DNA of 64,000 bases from an uncultured Lachnospiraceae bacterium (lineage in GTDB: Bacteria > Bacillota > Clostridia > Oscillospirales > CAG-272). The notes beneath the pieces are model-generated. The model was given only the letters and a program-made list of their open reading frames with translations, did no database searches and was not told where the DNA came from. The first letter of the stretch is position 1. Every line of letters begins with the position of its first letter. The position numbers were made by a program, and so were the translations under genes. The DNA lies in contig CAZMZJ010000008.1 of assembly GCA_964570825.1 (NCBI GenBank), forward strand, positions 24,853 through 88,852, in the 5' to 3' direction. Of the stretch, positions 17,644 through 42,561 are shown piece by piece.

Positions 17644-19128
17644 TTACACAGTCGATTTCAGCACGGCGTCAGCCGCCTCAAGGACGATGTCTTTTTCGCA
17701 GAAGGGTGTTTTTATTCCTCTTATAAGCTGATAATTCTCATGTCCCTTGCCTGCGAGGAGCAGGATGTCACCTTCTCTGAGAATCCCGACGGCGTACTTT
17801 ATGGCTTCGCGGCGGTCGGGAATAGATATATAATCGCATCCTCCCGGCACAAAGGCAGATGCAATATCGCGAATGATAAGCGCAGGGTCTTCACAGTCGG
17901 GGTTGTCAGCGGTCAGAATACATAAATCGCACAGTGACGAGGCGATTGCCCCGAGTTCCGGACGGCGCATCTGCGTGCGCCCTCCGACGGATCCGAAAAG
18001 ACAAATAAGGCGTTTTGGCTTGTAGCTTCTCAGAGTGTGAAGCACCGCGGAAAAGCTTGTCCCGTTGTGTGCGTAGTCGATGACTATCGTGGCATAGGGA
18101 AGTGCGTTGACAAGCTCAAATCTGCCCTCCACCTTTATCTGCGGCAGTGTATCAATAATCCTGTCGGTATCAGGAATATAGTTTCTACAGACTGCAATAG
18201 CCGCGAGAGCATTGCTTACGTTTATTTCTCCCGGAAGATTTAGCTGTGTTCTTCTGCAGTATGAGCCATTGATATAATCAAACGACACTCCGAGTGCTCC
18301 TGAAGTCCTGAATTGGGAAATATTCCCGGCCCGATGGTTTGCGTCAGTATTAAATCCGAATGTATCTACAGGTGCTTTGCAGCCGGCTACCATGTCATAA
18401 GAGTTGATATCGTCAGCGTTGATTATCGCACGGTCAAGCTTATATTTTGTAAAAAGGCTTGCTTTGCACGCCTTGTAATGGCTGAAGTCAGGGTGCTCCG
18501 AACCGCCTATGTGATCCGGTGAAAGATTTGTAAAGACGCACGTATCAAAATCTATGCAGCGAATGCGGTCAAGGTAGAGAGCCTGAGAGGAGACCTCAAG
18601 AGCGACATATCTGATACCGTATGACGCCATTTCGTAAAGATAACGCTGCAAATCGCAGCTCTCTGGCGTGGTGTTTGAAGTGCGGTGTTTGAAATTACCG
18701 TATTCGACGCCGTTTGAACCAATATAACCTGCCGGTATTCCGCAGCTGTTGAGAATTCCGGCAATCATCAGCGCTGTCGTGGTTTTTCCCTTAGTGCCGG
18801 TTATTCCGATTACTTTAAGACGCTGAGACGGATTTGCATAAAGACCGGCGGAAAGAGAGGCAAGAATTTTGCGGGTATTGACAGCATACATAACCGCCGC
18901 GTCGCTTGGAAGATCAAGCTTTTGTTCGGCAACAAACGCCCGGCAGCCGAGGTTATATGCCGACCGGGCAAAAAGATGTCCGTCTGTCACCGAACCGCTG
19001 ATGCAGACAAAGACTGAATTTGATCTTGCGGCTCTTGAGTCGGAGCATATGTGACCTATTTCAATATCGGTGTTCCCAATGCAGTAATTATTTGGGCAGG
19101 TCAATGATATTAGATCACTAAATTTCAT
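17644..19128 (-). CDS. murE: UDP-MurNAc-L-Ala-D-Glu:diamino acid ligase (MurE family), probably not meso-DAP specific
   Basis: 494 aa; GITGTKGKTTT P-loop, DYAHN, LLLAGKGHE. The DAP-recognition motif reads DNPD (17896-17907) instead of DNPR. Confidence 0.88.
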   Translation of the reverse strand: MKFSDLISLTCPNNYCIGNTDIEIGHICSDSRAARSNSVFVCISGSVTDGHLFARSAYNLGCRAFVAEQKLDLPSDAAVMYAVNTRKILASLSAGLYANPSQRLKVIGITGTKGKTTTALMIAGILNSCGIPAGYIGSNGVEYGNFKHRTSNTTPESCDLQRYLYEMASYGIRYVALEVSSQALYLDRIRCIDFDTCVFTNLSPDHIGGSEHPDFSHYKACKASLFTKYKLDRAIINADDINSYDMVAGCKAPVDTFGFNTDANHRAGNISQFRTSGALGVSFDYINGSYCRRTQLNLPGEINVSNALAAIAVCRNYIPDTDRIIDTLPQIKVEGRFELVNALPYATIVIDYAHNGTSFSAVLHTLRSYKPKRLICLFGSVGGRTQMRRPELGAIASSLCDLCILTADNPDCEDPALIIRDIASAFVPGGCDYISIPDRREAIKYAVGILREGDILLLAGKGHENYQLIRGIKTPFCEKDIVLEAADAVLKSTV

Positions 19129-19907
19129 ATTGAACAGCCTTTCATGCCTATTGTTGAAATTTGTGATGCGGCAAATCTGTTAAGAGTATCCGGAAAGCCG
19201 CGGCTTTTTTTGCCGCAGGCTGCGATGGTGCATGCCGCGAGGACTTCAAGCGAATCGATATATGTTTCGGGAAGGTGATATGTCTTTTTTATTAGCGAAA
19301 GCTCGGTGCATCCGAGAATCAGCCTTTCGCTGCCCATAGCGAGCAGGCTTTCCGAAACGGCATGGAATGACGTCATATCTGGTTCGTTTCCGCGTTTGAC
19401 CGCGCCATATATTATGTCTGTAAGCAGAGCTTGTTCCTTCGGAGCGCATTGTATGCAGCCGACTCCTTCCGTAAGACATACGGTTCGGTATGCCCCCGCC
19501 CTCGCCGTGCCTTCTGTGGACATGATTCCGATGCTGCCAGCGCCGATATATTTTGCGTATCTTACGGTCAGTTCAATAATATTCAGCAGAGGGACGGGAG
19601 ATGCGTCTTTTAACGAATTGTAAAAATAGTGAGCCGTGTTGCATGGCATTGCGATAAGATCTGCGCCTGCGTCAGCCAGACGGCGAGCCTCCTCAACCAT
19701 GACCGGAAGCGGATTCAAGCATGATGCGCCGGTTATAAAAGCCGTTCTGTCCGGGGTTGTCGCCCGGCTGCTGAGTATTATATCTATATGATCCTGATCG
19801 CAATTTGCGGCGGTATGTGTGGTTATTAGTTCATAGAAATAAACGCTGGACATGGGGCCGAGGCCACCAAGTATCCCAAGCACAGGGGTCGAATTGCTGG
19901 CTTTCAC
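19125..19907 (-). CDS. Asp/Glu-family (PLP-independent) amino-acid racemase, aspartate racemase-like
   Basis: 260 aa with both catalytic Cys motifs (MPCNTAHYF and LGCTELSL). The stop overlaps the murE start (ATGA). Confidence 0.85.
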   Translation of the reverse strand: MKASNSTPVLGILGGLGPMSSVYFYELITTHTAANCDQDHIDIILSSRATTPDRTAFITGASCLNPLPVMVEEARRLADAGADLIAMPCNTAHYFYNSLKDASPVPLLNIIELTVRYAKYIGAGSIGIMSTEGTARAGAYRTVCLTEGVGCIQCAPKEQALLTDIIYGAVKRGNEPDMTSFHAVSESLLAMGSERLILGCTELSLIKKTYHLPETYIDSLEVLAACTIAACGKKSRGFPDTLNRFAASQISTIGMKGCSI

Positions 19908-19912
19908 CTTGA

Positions 19913-20296
19913 TTACCTTCTTTTTTGCTGCAGAGTCGGGAGCGCGTCCCGTAAAATTTTGAGAGAAATAATAATAAACGACGTTTCAAGAGTATCTTTG
20001 AATTCTGTGACAAACTGTTCATATATTGCAGTGCAGGGAATAAGCAGCGTGGTCTGCCGGATATGAATATCGTCGTTGAAATCGAGCAAAGTATGCAGCA
20101 AATAAAATTTGTTTTCCGGATATTTTAGCTTGGCATACTTAAATCTAATAATTCCGGGTATTGCTGATACACGTTTTTCTGCATAAACAAACGGCTCTAT
20201 TTCATAATCTTTATTCAGAGCGTGAATAAGCTCGGAAATTCCCGGGCCGGCGCCGAAAAGAAGGATATACGGCTTTTGCTCAAGGAGGTTTTCCAT
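19913..20296 (-). CDS. Hypothetical 127-aa protein; possible pre-ATP-grasp (carboxylate-amine ligase N-terminal) domain remnant
   Basis: An ORF with AAAGGA upstream of ATG 20296. The track's ATG 20344 lies within an extended -10 (TGgTATAAT). The layout KPYILLFGAG...TLLIPCTAIYEQFV resembles the N-domain of D-Asp-ligase-type ATP-grasp enzymes, but no ATP-grasp domain follows. Confidence 0.4.
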   Translation of the reverse strand: MENLLEQKPYILLFGAGPGISELIHALNKDYEIEPFVYAEKRVSAIPGIIRFKYAKLKYPENKFYLLHTLLDFNDDIHIRQTTLLIPCTAIYEQFVTEFKDTLETSFIIISLKILRDALPTLQQKRR

Positions 20297-20486
20297 ACAG
20301 GTGTCATCCTTTCCCTTTGCACTTTCCTGGTTGATATTTAACATACATTATACCATACTGAACCGATAAAATAAATAGAATTTTCGCCTCTGAAAGCTTT
20401 TTTATATGAATTGACTTGAAATAGACGGAATTATTATATATAATTAGCAAGAGAGAATTGCGGAGCGAGAGGTTTATATTGTCACT

Positions 20487-21059
20487 ATGAAAAGGGAATC
20501 TGTTTACAGGATTTTTTCCAATATCCCGGAACTTAAAACTGAGCGTCTCGTGCTTCGGAAAATGCTTGTTAAAGATGCCGACGATATGTTTGAGTATGCA
20601 AGACGCGCCGATGTTACAAAATATCTTACATGGAGTCCGCATCCAAGCCGCGCCTATACAAAGGAGTATCTTGAATATATCGCGACAAGATACGCCGCAG
20701 GCGAATTTTATGACTGGGCGGTGACTGACGCACGAACCGGCAAAATGATAGGAACATGCGGGTTCACGAAATTTGATTTTATGTCAAACAGCGCAGAGGT
20801 CGGATATGTGTTAAATCCGGTTTTCTGGGGTCACGGATACGCCTGCGAAGCGCTTGAAGCGGTGCTTAATTTCGGCTTCTGCAACCTTAAGCTAAACCGG
20901 ATTGAAGCAAGGTATATGGAAGGCAACATCGCATCAAGAAGAGTTATGGAAAAATCAGGGATGAAATATGAGGGAATGTTCCGCCAGTCTCTTTTGATAC
21001 ACGGCGAATACCGTAATGTCTGCGTGTGCTCGATACTTAACTGCGAGTACATCAGATAG
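20487..21059 (+). CDS. GNAT family N-acetyltransferase (RimJ/RimL-like)
   Basis: 190 aa; TERLVLRKM start of the domain and the WGHGYACEAL acetyl-CoA-binding region. Confidence 0.85.
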   Translation: MKRESVYRIFSNIPELKTERLVLRKMLVKDADDMFEYARRADVTKYLTWSPHPSRAYTKEYLEYIATRYAAGEFYDWAVTDARTGKMIGTCGFTKFDFMSNSAEVGYVLNPVFWGHGYACEALEAVLNFGFCNLKLNRIEARYMEGNIASRRVMEKSGMKYEGMFRQSLLIHGEYRNVCVCSILNCEYIR

Positions 21060-38109: not shown

Positions 38110-38200
38110 AAATATGTTTATTTATTATTAAACTATTGGCGATACCGCCGAAAAATCATACGGCATAATGACATGTGCCAATACGCCACGGGAGTCATGT

Positions 38201-39184
38201 ATGAATCGGACCGCTCAAACTCCGCGCGCTTATCGCGATAAAAACAAAGATAAATATAAAAAAGATCAAAAAGATAGAATACTGATATTTTCTTCGCTTG
38301 CAATGGCGTCGGCAGCCATGTTGATTTTTATCCTGATACTGACGCTGCCGTTGCTTTTTCGGGGAAACACGTCGGAAAATGTCAAAAAAGGAACTGAAAA
38401 CGATTTTAGCTGGGATACTACGGCGCCGGTTATTAAAGGAGTAAAAAATCTCACTGTATATAAAGGAGAATCGGTCGCATACAGAAAAAATATTATTCTT
38501 GACGACAACAGCGGAAGCGGCAACGTCACGCTGACGGTTGATTCGAGCAAGGTTAATACTGATAAGCCCGGAACATATGTTGTGTATTATATTGCGACCG
38601 ACAAAGCAGGAAATAAAACTTCGGTTTCGGTTTTTGTGACAGTCATAGAACCGCAGATTCCGCTTGAGAAGCTCAACGCGGCTGTGGACAATGTAATCGC
38701 CGCAATTATTACCGACGGAATGAGCAAGGAAGCACAATGCCGCGCTGTTTATAGCTATATTCAGGGGCACATTGCGTACGCCTCGACATCCGATAAGTCG
38801 GACTGGCGGGCTGAAGCCTACCGGGCGTTATTTGTCAGCGGGACAGGAGACTGCTTCAGCTTTTTTGCCGCAGCGAAAGCATTCCTTGACAGGCTCGGAA
38901 TTGAAAATCTCGATATCCAGCGGACACCCGGACTGCTTGACGAAACGCATTACTGGAGCCTTGTGAATATTGGCACCAGCGCGCAGCCGCGCTGGTATCA
39001 CTTTGACGCCACAAGGCTGAGAGCGGAATACAACCACAGCGGATGTCTTCTTACAGAGGTTCAGATTGAAGCATATAACCATGTGAGAAAAAACTTTTAT
39101 GCATACGATAAATCCGCATACCCCGAGGTCTGCAATATAATAATCACTCCGACACCGGAGCTTGAACCATATTATAATAACTGA
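38201..39184 (+). CDS. Membrane-anchored extracellular protein: Ig-like (DUF5011-type) domain plus transglutaminase-like Cys protease-fold domain
   Basis: Basic N-terminus and one TM segment (ILIFSSLAMASAAMLIFILILTLPLLF). Ig-like region APVIKG...GTYVVYYIATDKAGNKTSVSVFVTV. Cys-His-Asp core: GTGDCFSFFAAAKAF ... HYWSLVNIG ... WYHFDAT. ATG 38201 follows GGGAG. Confidence 0.75.
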   Translation: MNRTAQTPRAYRDKNKDKYKKDQKDRILIFSSLAMASAAMLIFILILTLPLLFRGNTSENVKKGTENDFSWDTTAPVIKGVKNLTVYKGESVAYRKNIILDDNSGSGNVTLTVDSSKVNTDKPGTYVVYYIATDKAGNKTSVSVFVTVIEPQIPLEKLNAAVDNVIAAIITDGMSKEAQCRAVYSYIQGHIAYASTSDKSDWRAEAYRALFVSGTGDCFSFFAAAKAFLDRLGIENLDIQRTPGLLDETHYWSLVNIGTSAQPRWYHFDATRLRAEYNHSGCLLTEVQIEAYNHVRKNFYAYDKSAYPEVCNIIITPTPELEPYYNN

Positions 39185-39217
39185 AAAGGACAAACAGCCG
39201 TAAACAGGCTTACGCAT

Positions 39218-40717
39218 ATGCTCAACAATATACTTCAATATCTTGAAAATACCGCCGCAAGACTGCCGGACAAGACGGCCCTGTCGGATGGCACCGACAA
39301 CTTATCATTCGGAGAATTGCTAAAAAGGGCGCAGGCAATCGGAAGCTTCATCGCGAAACGAGGCTGCCATAAAGAGCCGGTTCCCGTTGTTATGGACAAG
39401 CATCCGAATACCGTTGCGGCATTTCTTGGCGTTGTATATGCCGGATGTTTTTATGTGCCGATAGATTCTGAGATGCCGATAAAGCGCGCGGAGCTAATAG
39501 CTCAGTCTTTGAACCCGAAATTTATAATAGCCGATAAAAAGAACTGTGATTTTGCGCGAGGACTCGGAACCGGCGAGGTGCTGCTTTACGACGATATTTC
39601 GTCAGACCTGCCGGACGATGTGCTTCTCGATAGAATACGCTCCGGACAGATCGACACAGATCCGATTTATATTGTTTTTACTTCTGGCTCGACCGGAGTT
39701 CCGAAGGGCGTTGCAGCCTGCCACCGTTCAGTGATCGACTATGCGGAAAGTCTTTCTGAGGCGCTCGGATTCAGCGAAAAAAATGTTTTCGGGAACCAGA
39801 CGCCGCTTTATTTTGACGCACCGCTCAAGGAAATCCTGCCGACGCTCAAATTCGGAGCTACGACATATTTTATCCCGAAAAAGCTGTTTATGTTTCCGGT
39901 AAAGCTTGTCGAGTATCTGAACGAGCATAAAATAAACACAATATGCTGGGTGGTCTCGGCTCTGACAATGATATCCGCTTTTAATACATTCGATAAAATC
40001 AAGCCTCAATATCTTACCACAGTCGCATTCGGGAGCGAAGTTTTTCCGATTAAACAGTTCAATATATGGCGCGACGCGCTGCCCGACGCTGCTTTTTACA
40101 ATCTTTACGGACCGACCGAATGCACCGGAATGTCAACATGGTATAAAGTAGAAGATAAAGTTAAAGACGGTGAACCCATACCCATAGGCCGGCCTTTCAG
40201 GAACACCCGTATAACCCTGATTAACGAAAATGGAAAAGAGGCCGCGCCGGGGGAAACGGGGGAAATCTATATTTCAGGAACCTGTGTTACGCTGGGGTAT
40301 TACAACAACCCGGATAAGACGAACGAAGCGTTTGTTCAAAACCCCCTTGTATCGGCATACCGCGAGATTGTGTATAAAACCGGAGACCTTGCTCGCAGAA
40401 ACGAGAAGGGAGAGCTGATATTCATATCCCGCAGGGATTATCAGATAAAGCATATGGGACACCGCATAGAGCTGGGGGAGATTGAAGCAGCCGCAGACAA
40501 ACACCCTGATGTTGCGCGTTCATGCTGCATTTATGACGATGAGAATAAAAGGATCCTCATGTTTTATATAGGAACCGCGGAACCGACGGAGCTGGGGCTA
40601 TATCTTAAAGACTATTTACCGCGCTATATGCTGCCGGGAAGCATCAGGAAACTCGATATGCTGCCGCTTACTCCGAACGGAAAGCTCGACCGCCGGGCAC
40701 TTAAAAATTTAGAATAA
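39218..40717 (+). CDS. DltA-like carrier-protein ligase (stand-alone adenylation enzyme)
   Basis: 499 aa; FTSGSTGVPKG, YGPTE, YKTGDL and PNGKLDRRAL motifs. The size and the following small carrier protein mirror DltA/DltC. Confidence 0.8.
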   Translation: MLNNILQYLENTAARLPDKTALSDGTDNLSFGELLKRAQAIGSFIAKRGCHKEPVPVVMDKHPNTVAAFLGVVYAGCFYVPIDSEMPIKRAELIAQSLNPKFIIADKKNCDFARGLGTGEVLLYDDISSDLPDDVLLDRIRSGQIDTDPIYIVFTSGSTGVPKGVAACHRSVIDYAESLSEALGFSEKNVFGNQTPLYFDAPLKEILPTLKFGATTYFIPKKLFMFPVKLVEYLNEHKINTICWVVSALTMISAFNTFDKIKPQYLTTVAFGSEVFPIKQFNIWRDALPDAAFYNLYGPTECTGMSTWYKVEDKVKDGEPIPIGRPFRNTRITLINENGKEAAPGETGEIYISGTCVTLGYYNNPDKTNEAFVQNPLVSAYREIVYKTGDLARRNEKGELIFISRRDYQIKHMGHRIELGEIEAAADKHPDVARSCCIYDDENKRILMFYIGTAEPTELGLYLKDYLPRYMLPGSIRKLDMLPLTPNGKLDRRALKNLE

Positions 40718-40738
40718 AGGATTGTGTGAATACTTGAA

Positions 40739-40966
40739 ATGGATGAACTGTTGAAGATACTGAAAGAGCTGCACGGTGATGTGGATTTCACATGCGAGGA
40801 GGGGCTTGTTGACAACGGCATTCTCGATTCGCTTGACATCGTAACCCTTGTCACAGAAATTAACGATAAATTCGGCGTATCAATACCCGCTGAAGAGATA
40901 CTGCCCGAAAATTTCAACTCGGCAAAAGCTATAATGAATCTAATCACAAAACTTGACGAGGTTTAA
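40739..40966 (+). CDS. DltC-like acyl/aminoacyl carrier protein
   Basis: 75 aa with the GILDSLDIVTLV phosphopantetheine Ser motif in a DltC-like context. Confidence 0.8.
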   Translation: MDELLKILKELHGDVDFTCEEGLVDNGILDSLDIVTLVTEINDKFGVSIPAEEILPENFNSAKAIMNLITKLDEV

Positions 40967-40971
40967 GGCAG

Positions 40972-42561
40972 GTGCTTTTCACATCATTTGAGTTTCTGCT
41001 GTTCGCCGCGACGCTGCTGGTTTTGTATTACATCGTCCCGAAAAAGGCGCAATGGGTGCTGCTTCTTCTCGCAAGCTACATATTTTACGGCTTTGCGGGT
41101 TTGAAGTATCTTGCCTTTATCGTGTCGACGACGGCGGTGTCGTATTTCACCGCCTTTTTCATGGGCAGGATGGAGGAACGCGAAAAGCAATATATCGACG
41201 CAAACCGAGACAATATGTCAAAGGACGAGCGAAAGGAATACAGGGCGAGGGCAAAAAAACGCAGGGTTTGCGTTTTGCTCACGGGGCTAATCGCGGGCTT
41301 CGGCATTCTCGCGGTAATAAAGTATTCCGCCTTTGCGGTAATAAATATAAACTCGCTTCTCCATATCTTCGGAGCACGCACTCTGGTTGTTCCAAACCTT
41401 TTGCTGCCTCTTGGAATTTCGTTTTACACATTTATGTCGATGAGCTACATCATCGACGTTTACCGCGGCAAAACGGCGCCTGAGAAGAACCCGGCAAAGC
41501 TTGCGCTTTTTGTGTCTTTTTTTCCTCAGGTTATTCAGGGACCTATATCGCGTTTCGGAGACCTTGAGCCTCAGCTATGCTCAGGGCATAAATTCGACTC
41601 GAAAAATCTTGTATTCGGGCTTCAGCGCGTTATATGGGGGTATTTCAAGAAGCTGGTCATAGCCGATAGAATTCTTGTGGCGGTGCAGACGCTGATGAAG
41701 AACACCGATGATTACAGCGGAATGTATGTCGTGCTTCTCATATTATTCTATTCGATTGAAATTTACGCCGACTTTACCGGAGGAATTGATATTACAATCG
41801 GCATTGCAGAAGCACTGGGGATAAAATTAGCCGAAAACTTCAGACACCCGTTTTTCTCAAAGTCTACGAAGGAATACTGGCGCCGCTGGCATATCACTAT
41901 GGGCACATGGTTCACCGATTATATTTTTTATCCGTTATCGGTGTCAAAACCCATGCAGAAGCTGTCGAAAAAGAGCCGTGAAGTATTCGGAAGTACGGTC
42001 GGTAAACGGATACCGGTCTATCTTGCAACAATAATTACATGGTTTCTGACCGGTCTCTGGCACGGAGCCGGGTGGAACTTTATCGTCTGGGGACTTTTGA
42101 ACTGTCTTGTTATTCTCGTATCGCAGGAATTCCAGCCGCTTTATGATAAATTCCACAGCGCCGCCCCACGGTTTGCCGAATCGAAGGGCTATGGGATTTT
42201 CATGGCGGCGCGCACATTCTGGCTGATGGGAGCCATACGAGTACTTGACTGCTACAGGGATGTGCCGCTGACATTCAGAATGTGGGGAAGTATCTTCTCG
42301 GCTGCCAACTGGGGAGATATTTTCAATGGAAAAATCATTTCGCTGGGACTTGGCGCGGCCGACTACATCGTTGTGGCTGCGGGATGTCTGATAATGTTTG
42401 CGGTAAGCTTTCTCGGCGAAAAGAAAAGCGTCCGCGAAAGGCTTTACGGGCGGACGGTGCTGTCGGCATCGGTATTTTCACTGCTGTTTTTGTCTATCAT
42501 AATTTTCGGAGCATACGGCGTCGGATACGACGCAAGTCAGTTTATATATAATCAATTTTAA
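40972..42561 (+). CDS. MBOAT family membrane O-acyltransferase (DltB/AlgI-like, 529 aa)
   Basis: MLFTSFEFLLF N-terminus, polytopic, with the conserved EYWRRWHITMGTWFTDYIFYPL His region. Longer than canonical DltB. Confidence 0.85.
   Translation: MLFTSFEFLLFAATLLVLYYIVPKKAQWVLLLLASYIFYGFAGLKYLAFIVSTTAVSYFTAFFMGRMEEREKQYIDANRDNMSKDERKEYRARAKKRRVCVLLTGLIAGFGILAVIKYSAFAVININSLLHIFGARTLVVPNLLLPLGISFYTFMSMSYIIDVYRGKTAPEKNPAKLALFVSFFPQVIQGPISRFGDLEPQLCSGHKFDSKNLVFGLQRVIWGYFKKLVIADRILVAVQTLMKNTDDYSGMYVVLLILFYSIEIYADFTGGIDITIGIAEALGIKLAENFRHPFFSKSTKEYWRRWHITMGTWFTDYIFYPLSVSKPMQKLSKKSREVFGSTVGKRIPVYLATIITWFLTGLWHGAGWNFIVWGLLNCLVILVSQEFQPLYDKFHSAAPRFAESKGYGIFMAARTFWLMGAIRVLDCYRDVPLTFRMWGSIFSAANWGDIFNGKIISLGLGAADYIVVAAGCLIMFAVSFLGEKKSVRERLYGRTVLSASVFSLLFLSIIIFGAYGVGYDASQFIYNQF

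Follow-up and report, generated by a model that had tools for sequence, protein, structure and literature searches.

Here, we report a three-gene locus that probably represents a reduced form of a peptidoglycan-chemotype cassette. The locus lies in a 64,000-nucleotide stretch of DNA (the window) of contig CAZMZJ010000008.1, assembly GCA_964570825.1, from an uncultured Lachnospiraceae bacterium placed by GTDB in Oscillospirales, CAG-272. It encodes sLIG, a short open reading frame (ORF) corresponding to the N-terminal domain of a D-aspartate-type ligase; a racemase of the pyridoxal 5′-phosphate (PLP)-independent Asp/Glu family; and MurE2, a Mur ligase of the MurE family, i.e., the ligase of residue 3 of the stem peptide. 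In our reading, cassettes of this kind are widespread in Oscillospirales-type Clostridia and the racemase would make D-Asp; in the ancestral and still commonest arrangement, an ATP-grasp ligase would attach this D-Asp to the side-chain amine of residue 3 and an asparagine synthase would amidate it, giving an A4-type Lys/Orn-D-Asp(Asn) cross-bridge. In the present genome, the synthase gene would be lost along with two-thirds of the ligase gene, the catalytic part, with a conserved N-domain ORF left behind, and the stem peptide built by MurE2 would be of the Lys/Orn type and lack the classical D-Asp bridge. A second enzyme, MurE1, encoded in the division and cell wall (dcw) cluster, would provide the spore cortex with diaminopimelate (DAP)-type precursors, as in Lysinibacillus sphaericus. 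We give this explanation as a whole (reduced cassette, Lys/Orn-type MurE2, and cortex MurE1) a probability of roughly 65%. It builds on the gene structure, the position of one motif, a clade, gene contexts, and distributions, from which we infer the substrates and the division of labor between wall and cortex. An earlier sequence-only reading of the same DNA had proposed a non-DAP third-position residue and a cross-bridge logic for the pairing of racemase and MurE; what it observed is confirmed throughout, and its interpretation is, overall, largely supported.

MurE2 and its predicted substrate

MurE2 scores 386.5 bits against TIGR01085 (UDP-N-acetylmuramyl-tripeptide synthetase; cut-off, 257.3), which places it in the MurE family; it has domain matches to PF01225, PF08245, and PF02875 and carries the motifs GITGTKGKTT, NLSPDH, and DYAH and the conserved Lys in KACKASLF. 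DAP-type MurEs use the Asn and Arg of a DNPR motif to hydrogen-bond the D-centre carboxylate of meso-DAP (PMC3829189). MurE2 does not have the DNPR of the meso-DAP-adding enzymes but reads DNPD, and the codons at 17907-17896 are those given by the sequence-only reading. Phmmer alignments with solved structures put this DNPD exactly on the DNPA of Staphylococcus aureus MurE (4c12) and exactly on the DNPR of Mycobacterium tuberculosis MurE (2wtz) and of 8g6p; the motif thus occupies the true DNPR position and an offset is ruled out.

The S. aureus enzyme, which adds L-lysine, is the best solved-structure match of MurE2 (E 3e-70) and the same three-domain Mur ligase. It has Ala in place of the Arg and binds the epsilon-ammonium group in an acidic pocket made up of Asp-406 and Glu-460; such a pocket favors Lys (PMC3829189). 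D408 and E464 of MurE2 align with these two residues, and D411 is a third acidic residue. S. aureus MurE and other Lys-type MurEs with D(D,N)P(N,A) therefore resemble MurE2 in that the Arg is lost and the acidic residues binding the epsilon-amine are kept; in contrast, MurE2 is only ~35-40% identical to the S. aureus enzyme, its fourth motif residue is Asp instead of Ala or Asn, and its substrate may be L-Orn. Because the Arg is replaced by Asp, D408 and E464 are kept, and D411 is added, the pocket of MurE2 is predicted to favor a cationic side chain (Lys or Orn) and to repel or exclude DAP, a property that would be of use to a cell in which DAP is produced as well, both for the cortex and on the way to lysine. 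MurE2 most likely inserts lysine or ornithine, not diaminopimelate. This class assignment draws on the loss of the Arg, the acidic pocket, the cross-bridge neighbors, and the status of the non-Arg enzyme as sole MurE in Peptoniphilaceae and Tissierella (both below), and it extends to the class Lys/Orn, since the sequence does not distinguish L-Lys from L-Orn as the substrate; a literature search on the Tissierella chemotype, meant to decide between the two, returned nothing usable.

The motif is conserved well beyond this genome. Among the 120 closest database homologs of MurE2 (51-81% identity), 117 have DNPD, three have DNPN, and none has the Arg, so that DNPD is not a chance substitution. 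We also fetched 80 loci from species-representative genomes for motif comparison: MurEs at 42-54% identity read DNPD, DNPG, DNPN, DNPA, or DDPD/E/N, and the Lachnospiraceae MurEs at 41-43% identity (Blautia, Dorea, Roseburia, and [Ruminococcus] torques) read DNPR and are never adjoined by a racemase. In a maximum-likelihood tree of 99 sequences, the non-Arg MurEs form one clade, apart from the DNPR/DNSR sequences, with 99% support in the Shimodaira–Hasegawa-like approximate likelihood ratio test (SH-aLRT). According to record titles, its members come from Acutalibacteraceae-/Oscillospiraceae-type metagenome-assembled genomes (MAGs), Gemmiger, Subdoligranulum, Tissierella, and Peptoniphilaceae. 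Its position in the tree, amid DAP-type MurEs of Clostridia, suggests that specificity switched independently. Literature searches turned up nothing relevant on a second clostridial MurE or on DNPD in connection with MurE.

Several points speak against a Lys/Orn-type MurE2. The protein exceeds the cut-off of NF001126, the NCBIfam equivalog for the DAP ligase (421.8 vs 373), and does not reach that of the Bacilli-type L-lysine MurE model (NF010628/PRK14022; 326 vs 536 bits), i.e., it stands outside the Bacilli L-Lys ligase sequence family, though it may still add Lys. It has a DAP-type GKGHE loop, and specificity does not depend on the fourth motif residue alone (Ruane et al., PMC3829189). With the NF001126 cut-off exceeded, automatic naming of MurE2 as a DAP ligase is expected and is probably wrong; source databases routinely give this name to its homologs. 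The NF001126 score, the conserved loop, these database names, and the fact that the nearest Arg-containing relatives are clostridial DAP-type MurEs would all suit an enzyme that is still a diaminopimelate ligase (e.g., for LL-DAP or amidated DAP), in which DNPD merely retunes the binding. We regard this as improbable: the carboxylate-binding Arg is lost throughout the clade, with an acidic replacement, and the clade is systematically associated with genes for Asl-type ligases, AsnB-type synthases, and FemAB transferases, which are Lys/Orn-typical. Moreover, a Peptoniphilaceae genome has a non-Arg enzyme as its only MurE; this family is known for Lys/Orn walls (Anaerococcus A4-alpha, PMC11382707).

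The racemase, sLIG, and the cassette in relatives

The racemase is a member of the aspartate racemases by TIGR00035 (166.5 bits; cut-off, 93.1), with a match to PF01177, and its best solved relative is Pyrococcus horikoshii aspartate racemase 1jfl (E 2e-36). Both catalytic cysteines, Cys89 and Cys200, are present, in MPCNTAH and LGCTEL, in agreement with the two Cys motifs (PCNTAH and GCTE) that had been picked out from the sequence. Arg54 and Lys171 stand at the positions aligned with Arg48 and Lys164 of the P. horikoshii enzyme, which we take to be its side-chain carboxylate contacts; the two Cys and these two positions are kept in nearly all of 24 aligned racemases, beside full-length and short ligases alike. 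The CuyB cysteate-racemase model (an NCBIfam equivalog) is also exceeded, by 5 bits (195.1 vs 190), so that automatic pipelines may name the protein a cysteate racemase; in our view, models of racemases with acidic substrates cross-react here. In relatives, the surrounding genes point to aspartate and not cysteate as the substrate, and an aspartate racemase is what we predict.

All ORFs around 42 non-Arg MurE loci were clustered, which gave three recurrent arrangements. Arrangement A, in at least 13 of the fetched loci, consists of an AsnB-type asparagine synthase (~615 aa; 493 bits with TIGR01536), a ~410-aa protein, the racemase, and MurE2. Arrangement B, that of the window, consists of a 120-145-aa ORF, the racemase (sometimes absent), and MurE2, with a divergent acetyltransferase gene (GNAT). 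Arrangement C consists of a ~240-aa protein, a MurE with DDPD/E/N, and a FemAB-family transferase. ATP-grasp matches of the ~410-aa protein, to carbamoyl phosphate synthetase (CPSase)-like proteins, Ddl, and VanA, are weak but consistent; its nearest protein atlas clusters are named 'D-aspartate ligase' (score 0.99), and source databases name its homologs in Tissierella, Romboutsia, Intestinibacter, and Peptostreptococcus 'carboxylate-amine ligase' or 'D-aspartate ligase'. Across 101 sampled genomes of the window's family, the full-length ~410-aa ligase is found in ~57 and the racemase in 52, nearly always contiguous with MurE2.

In lactococci and enterococci, the amidated D-Asp cross-bridge on L-Lys is built by Asl, RacD, and AsnH (PMC4155827; bioRxiv 10.1101/2023.10.08.561446). 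Given the ATP-grasp matches and the D-aspartate ligase names of the ~410-aa protein, arrangement A would hold these same three functions, with the putative bridge genes in one operon with the ligase of residue 3, and we read arrangement C as a tRNA-dependent alternative to the D-Asp bridge. Bridges of the Asl and FemAB types are characteristic of Lys/Orn peptidoglycan chemotypes; the cassette and its FemAB neighbors would thus follow the gene logic of a Lys/Orn-type, cross-bridged (A4/A3) peptidoglycan. The L-Lys-D-Asp logic proposed for the pairing of racemase and MurE is borne out in this respect, as relatives add an ATP-grasp ligase and an AsnB-type synthase, or FemAB, to the pair, and the same comparative context, i.e., the cross-bridge neighbors of MurE2, favors the non-DAP, basic third-position residue that had been predicted.

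Within the DDPD/DDPE/DDPN subclade, a FemAB-family transferase follows MurE in four loci (L044, L064, L072, and L096). Some loci of this subclade, which also includes L049, L058, and L060, have, before MurE, the conserved ~240-aa protein, which has no Pfam or NCBIfam match; L044 and L096 are without it. The subclade probably represents another cross-bridge chemotype. ABC exporter gene pairs (ABC_membrane plus ABC_tran, ~570-600 aa each) lie within a few kb of MurE2 in L030, L032, L034, L058, and L066; none adjoins the window locus. At 55-64% identity, the GNAT protein exceeds MurE2 in conservation, and the gene adjoins every sLIG locus and lies just beyond the synthase gene in genomes with the full cassette. 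As a replacement for the lost ligase and synthase it was rejected: GNAT is present in 86 of the 101 family genomes whatever the state of the cassette, which makes it a likely synteny anchor and not a partner.

A profile of sLIG aligns with residues 1-107 of the full-length ligase profile, the pre-ATP-grasp domain (hhalign; probability 98.5%, E 3e-15), and sLIG lacks the catalytic domains of the ligase. The short form occurs in at least 17 related loci of many genera, always directly upstream of MurE2 or of the racemase-MurE2 pair, and its reading frame is kept though the copies share only 16-48% identity. In one close pair, the ratio of nonsynonymous to synonymous substitution rates (dN/dS) is lowest for MurE2 (0.05), followed by the racemase (0.11) and sLIG (0.19), which would place sLIG, too, under purifying selection. 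Since the synthase gene lies upstream of the ligase N terminus and the catalytic domains lie downstream, two separate deletions are needed to yield sLIG, which speaks for some reason to keep the N-domain ORF. One such reason, which we find rather unlikely, would be that sLIG is a functional precursor-binding module working with MurE2 and/or the racemase, so that D-Asp reaches the envelope by an undescribed route. A non-canonical Dlt-like operon in the window is a conceivable D-Asp sink in sLIG lineages. Besides an adenylating enzyme resembling DltA and an MBOAT protein resembling DltB, it encodes a carrier protein and a protein of 338 aa; the DltA-like protein scores well below its cut-off (270.7 vs 559.85 bits), and the DltB-like protein is also below its own (144.6 vs 375 bits).

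The complement of this genome (2.2 Mb in 70 contigs, 97.5% complete) does not favor a working bridge, and this weighs on our reading of the racemase. A whole-genome tblastn search with 22 ligase sequences found only sLIG (127-143 aa), and a whole-genome profile search for the full D-Asp ligase had no match; such a ligase elsewhere in the genome was therefore dropped. TIGR01536 found, genome-wide, only glutamine-amidotransferase-domain matches below the cut-off for the AsnB-type synthase, and PF02388 found no FemAB in the whole genome, so FemAB was dropped as an alternative bridge enzyme. The A4-alpha D-Asp cross-bridge system (Asl, RacD, and AsnH) is thus represented here by neither a full ligase nor a synthase, and with no ligase catalytic domain, AsnB-type synthase, or FemAB in a genome of this completeness, the racemase stands without its expected partner. 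The classical D-Asp cross-bridge route is probably not operating in this genome. Of the proposal that a D-amino acid made on site enters the stem peptide or the cross-bridge, the cross-bridge side gains from the cassette of relatives, but the ligase is reduced to its N-domain here; the stem-peptide route via MurE is not favored.

A form of this stem-peptide route would have the racemase yield D-Lys, D-Orn, or another D-amino acid that MurE2 itself ligates, comparable to Thermotoga maritima MurE with D-Lys. The translational coupling of racemase and MurE2 is in keeping with such a scheme, as is the persistence of the pair without a full Asl-type ligase in at least eight racemase-positive family genomes; some members of the racemase family (RacX and YgeA) act on basic or neutral amino acids. 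We hold it to be quite improbable because the racemase is closest to aspartate racemase, with the Arg48/Lys164-aligned positions kept, and the next-best racemase model, that of cysteate racemase, is likewise for an acidic substrate. The Asp in the MurE2 pocket would repel D-Asp or D-Glu. In addition, ~73 family genomes have MurE2 and 52 have the racemase, and several loci of the sLIG-MurE2 and GNAT|MurE2 kinds are without a racemase.

Related loci form a graded series, from the full cassette to sLIG-racemase-MurE2, sLIG-MurE2, and MurE2 alone, which looks as if the bridge module had been lost step by step while MurE2 stayed in every case. Single in-frame stops were seen in otherwise full-length matches to the ligase (G022, G039, G077, and G096), to the racemase (G014, G049, G054, G065, G085, and G091), and to MurE1 (G011, G064, and G082) of sampled genomes; they are either MAG sequencing errors or ongoing pseudogenization of cassette genes in several lineages. 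The series and the internal stops in some ligase and racemase copies might be taken to mean that the locus is a decaying relic, in which, after the loss of ligase and synthase, the racemase and perhaps MurE2 are becoming pseudogenes with no current role. This is barely credible for the window locus, where all three ORFs are intact with every catalytic motif present; the dN/dS values of the related pair (0.05-0.19) and the retention of MurE2 in ~73 of the 101 family genomes, in four of them as sole MurE, speak against it as well.

Two MurE paralogs and sporulation

A canonical MurE, MurE1, is encoded on another contig, and the window gene is hence a paralog, MurE2. The second murE in a dcw cluster, for which the sequence-only reading had suggested a check, was found on contig 10, between a penicillin-binding protein (PBP) gene and murF. 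MurE1 outscores MurE2 on the MurE and DAP-ligase models, and the two are only 35-37% identical. MurC, MurD, MurF, and FolC are single-copy and ordinary in this genome; they account for the matches that had been considered as further Mur-ligase paralogs. The dcw-cluster MurE of this genome and those of the Gemmiger and Subdoligranulum genomes (L109 and L110) read DNSR, i.e., the Arg is kept and the textbook Pro is changed to Ser.

The two types are distributed unevenly with respect to sporulation genes. In one Peptoniphilaceae genome and one Tissierella genome, the non-Arg MurE is the sole MurE, and both genomes are without SpoIVA and without Spo0A above the cut-off. The window genome, one Gemmiger genome, and one Subdoligranulum genome have both MurE types (the second being DNSR) together with SpoIVA and Spo0A; the window genome thus shows the dual-MurE organization, i.e., two paralogs of different motif type plus sporulation genes. 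Within the window's family, SpoIVA is found in 85 of the 101 sampled genomes and a MurE2-type gene in ~73, most of which also have a MurE1-type gene. Genomes with MurE2 only are confined to those lacking SpoIVA (4/16 vs 0/85 of the SpoIVA-positive genomes); by the MurE family model, each of these four has a single MurE, with DNPD or DNPG. Genomes with MurE1 only are SpoIVA-positive in 12 of 13 cases. The confinement of MurE2-only genomes to the SpoIVA-negative set is the pattern expected if MurE2 serves the vegetative wall and MurE1 the cortex, and such a division of labor, with DAP-type precursors from MurE1, is probable. In Lysinibacillus (Bacillus) sphaericus, Tipper and co-workers reportedly found by biochemical work in the 1970s that an L-Lys ligase serves the vegetative wall and that a meso-DAP ligase is induced for the cortex.

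Some caveats apply to this part of the argument. The SpoIVA link comes from four MurE2-only genomes, one of them only 72% complete, the sampled genomes are related and thus non-independent, and ~10 SpoIVA-negative family genomes keep both MurEs. Both enzymes could instead be vegetative, giving a mixed or condition-dependent DAP/Lys(Orn) wall (e.g., a switch upon stress, antibiotics, or phage) without any link to sporulation. The ~10 genomes just mentioned fit this alternative, and so do the single MurF and the ordinary dcw position of MurE1, which is the one that serves vegetative growth in most bacteria. We nevertheless find it unlikely, considering that MurE1 is lost only in SpoIVA-negative genomes and that the non-sporulating Peptoniphilaceae and Tissierella genomes have the non-Arg type only. 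A wall/cortex division between MurE2 and MurE1 remains our preferred reading.

Known systems and features of the locus

Known counterparts exist for all components: Lys-type MurEs, aspartate racemases, the Asl/AsnH bridge pathway, and spore formers with dual adding enzymes. Relatives encode an ATP-grasp ligase, a racemase of the same family, and an AsnB-type synthase next to one another, like the Asl/RacD/AsnH pathway of Enterococcus faecium and Lactococcus lactis; in L. lactis, aslA and racD share an operon (PMC4155827). The difference is that MurE is in the same operon here and in relatives, and that, in the window genome, the ligase is present as its N-domain only and the synthase is missing. 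A precedent for an orphan racemase is Lactobacillus plantarum, a DAP-type species that keeps racD without aslA (table in PMC4155827).

T. maritima MurE (4bub; DDPR; L- and D-Lys) is comparable in its altered DNPR motif and in coming from an organism with a D-amino acid at or near position 3, and MurE2 matches it with E 1e-58; it differs in that it keeps the Arg, which MurE2 lacks, and the window racemase is of the aspartate type. The Lys racemase of T. maritima is PLP-dependent and unrelated to the window racemase. The window genome resembles L. sphaericus in having two MurE paralogs, one with and one without the Arg, plus a sporulation gene set; it differs in belonging to Clostridia instead of Bacilli, and some apparently asporogenous relatives keep both.

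What appears new is, first, a distinct clostridial clade of non-Arg MurEs that lies outside the Bacilli L-Lys ligase family and is mis-named in source databases and, second, the placement of MurE2 in one operon with bridge genes, its wide spread in gut Oscillospirales, and the persisting remnant of the ligase N-domain. Whether the peptidoglycan of gut bacteria is of the DAP or Lys type decides which host sensors respond; one such sensor, NOD1, detects DAP-type fragments. For Ruminococcus, Oscillibacter, and further genera of Ruminococcaceae/Oscillospiraceae in the gut, a recent review gives the chemotype as unknown (PMC11382707). By our prediction, Lys/Orn vegetative walls, often D-Asp-bridged, would be found across much of an uncultured Oscillospirales family and in Gemmiger and Subdoligranulum, with DAP reserved for the spore cortex. 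Read together with the neighboring genes, the non-Arg motif (DNPD and variants) would be a simple genomic marker with which to correct the DAP-ligase annotation and to predict the chemotype from metagenomes. The reduced locus itself documents a step-wise decay of a cross-bridge module in which a domain-sized ORF is retained.

Table 1. Coordinates of the locus, associated features, and related loci. Positions refer to the window unless another handle is given.
Feature	Position	Strand	Description and basis
MurE2	17644..19128	minus	Mur ligase, MurE family; 494 aa; TIGR01085, Mur_ligase N/M/C domains
DNPD codons (gac aac ccc gac)	17896..17907	minus	Within TADNPDCEDP; sequence read and alignment
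Racemase	19125..19907	minus	PLP-independent Asp/Glu family, predicted aspartate racemase; 260 aa, GTG start; TIGR00035, PF01177
ATGA overlap	19125..19128	minus	Racemase stop/MurE2 start (translational coupling); sequence read
sLIG	19913..20344	minus	Short ORF, N-terminal (pre-ATP-grasp) domain of D-aspartate-type ligase; hhalign
GNAT	20487-21059	plus	Acetyltransf_3 (RimJ/SpeG-like), divergent from cassette; below all NCBIfam cut-offs
Dlt-like operon	38168-42561	plus	~20 kb from racemase-MurE2 locus
MurE1	G000:C10:6652-8073 (L001:1483-2982)	minus	Canonical MurE, ITSDNSRSEDP, Arg kept; between PASTA-bearing PBP gene and murF, dcw cluster
sLIG-type loci	Window 19913-20344; L009, L010, L011, L014-L018, L020, L029-L034, L042	minus (window)	Stand-alone ORF of ~125-145 aa; next gene upstream of (racemase-)MurE2

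sLIG, the racemase, and MurE2 are three minus-strand ORFs, tightly packed head to tail (Table 1), with 5 nt between the sLIG stop and the racemase start. The minus strand reads caatATGAaattt, so that the racemase stop and the MurE2 start share the ATGA at 19128-19125, just as the earlier reading had described the overlap. That reading had also placed MurE2 outside a dcw cluster, and no mur, fts, or mraY gene is found among the flanking genes of the locus; the genes to either side have unrelated housekeeping roles and are MutS2, FGGY kinase, AEC transporter, PRPP-synthetase-like, DUF1385, GNAT, RpiR, HI0933-like, Cmk, and PlsC genes. A promoter/terminator scan gave counts no different from those of shuffled sequence. 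Counted from its first ATG, sLIG is 143 aa long; the more likely start is the ATG at 20298-20296 (127 aa), which is preceded by a purine-rich, GGGAAAGGA-like ribosome-binding site.

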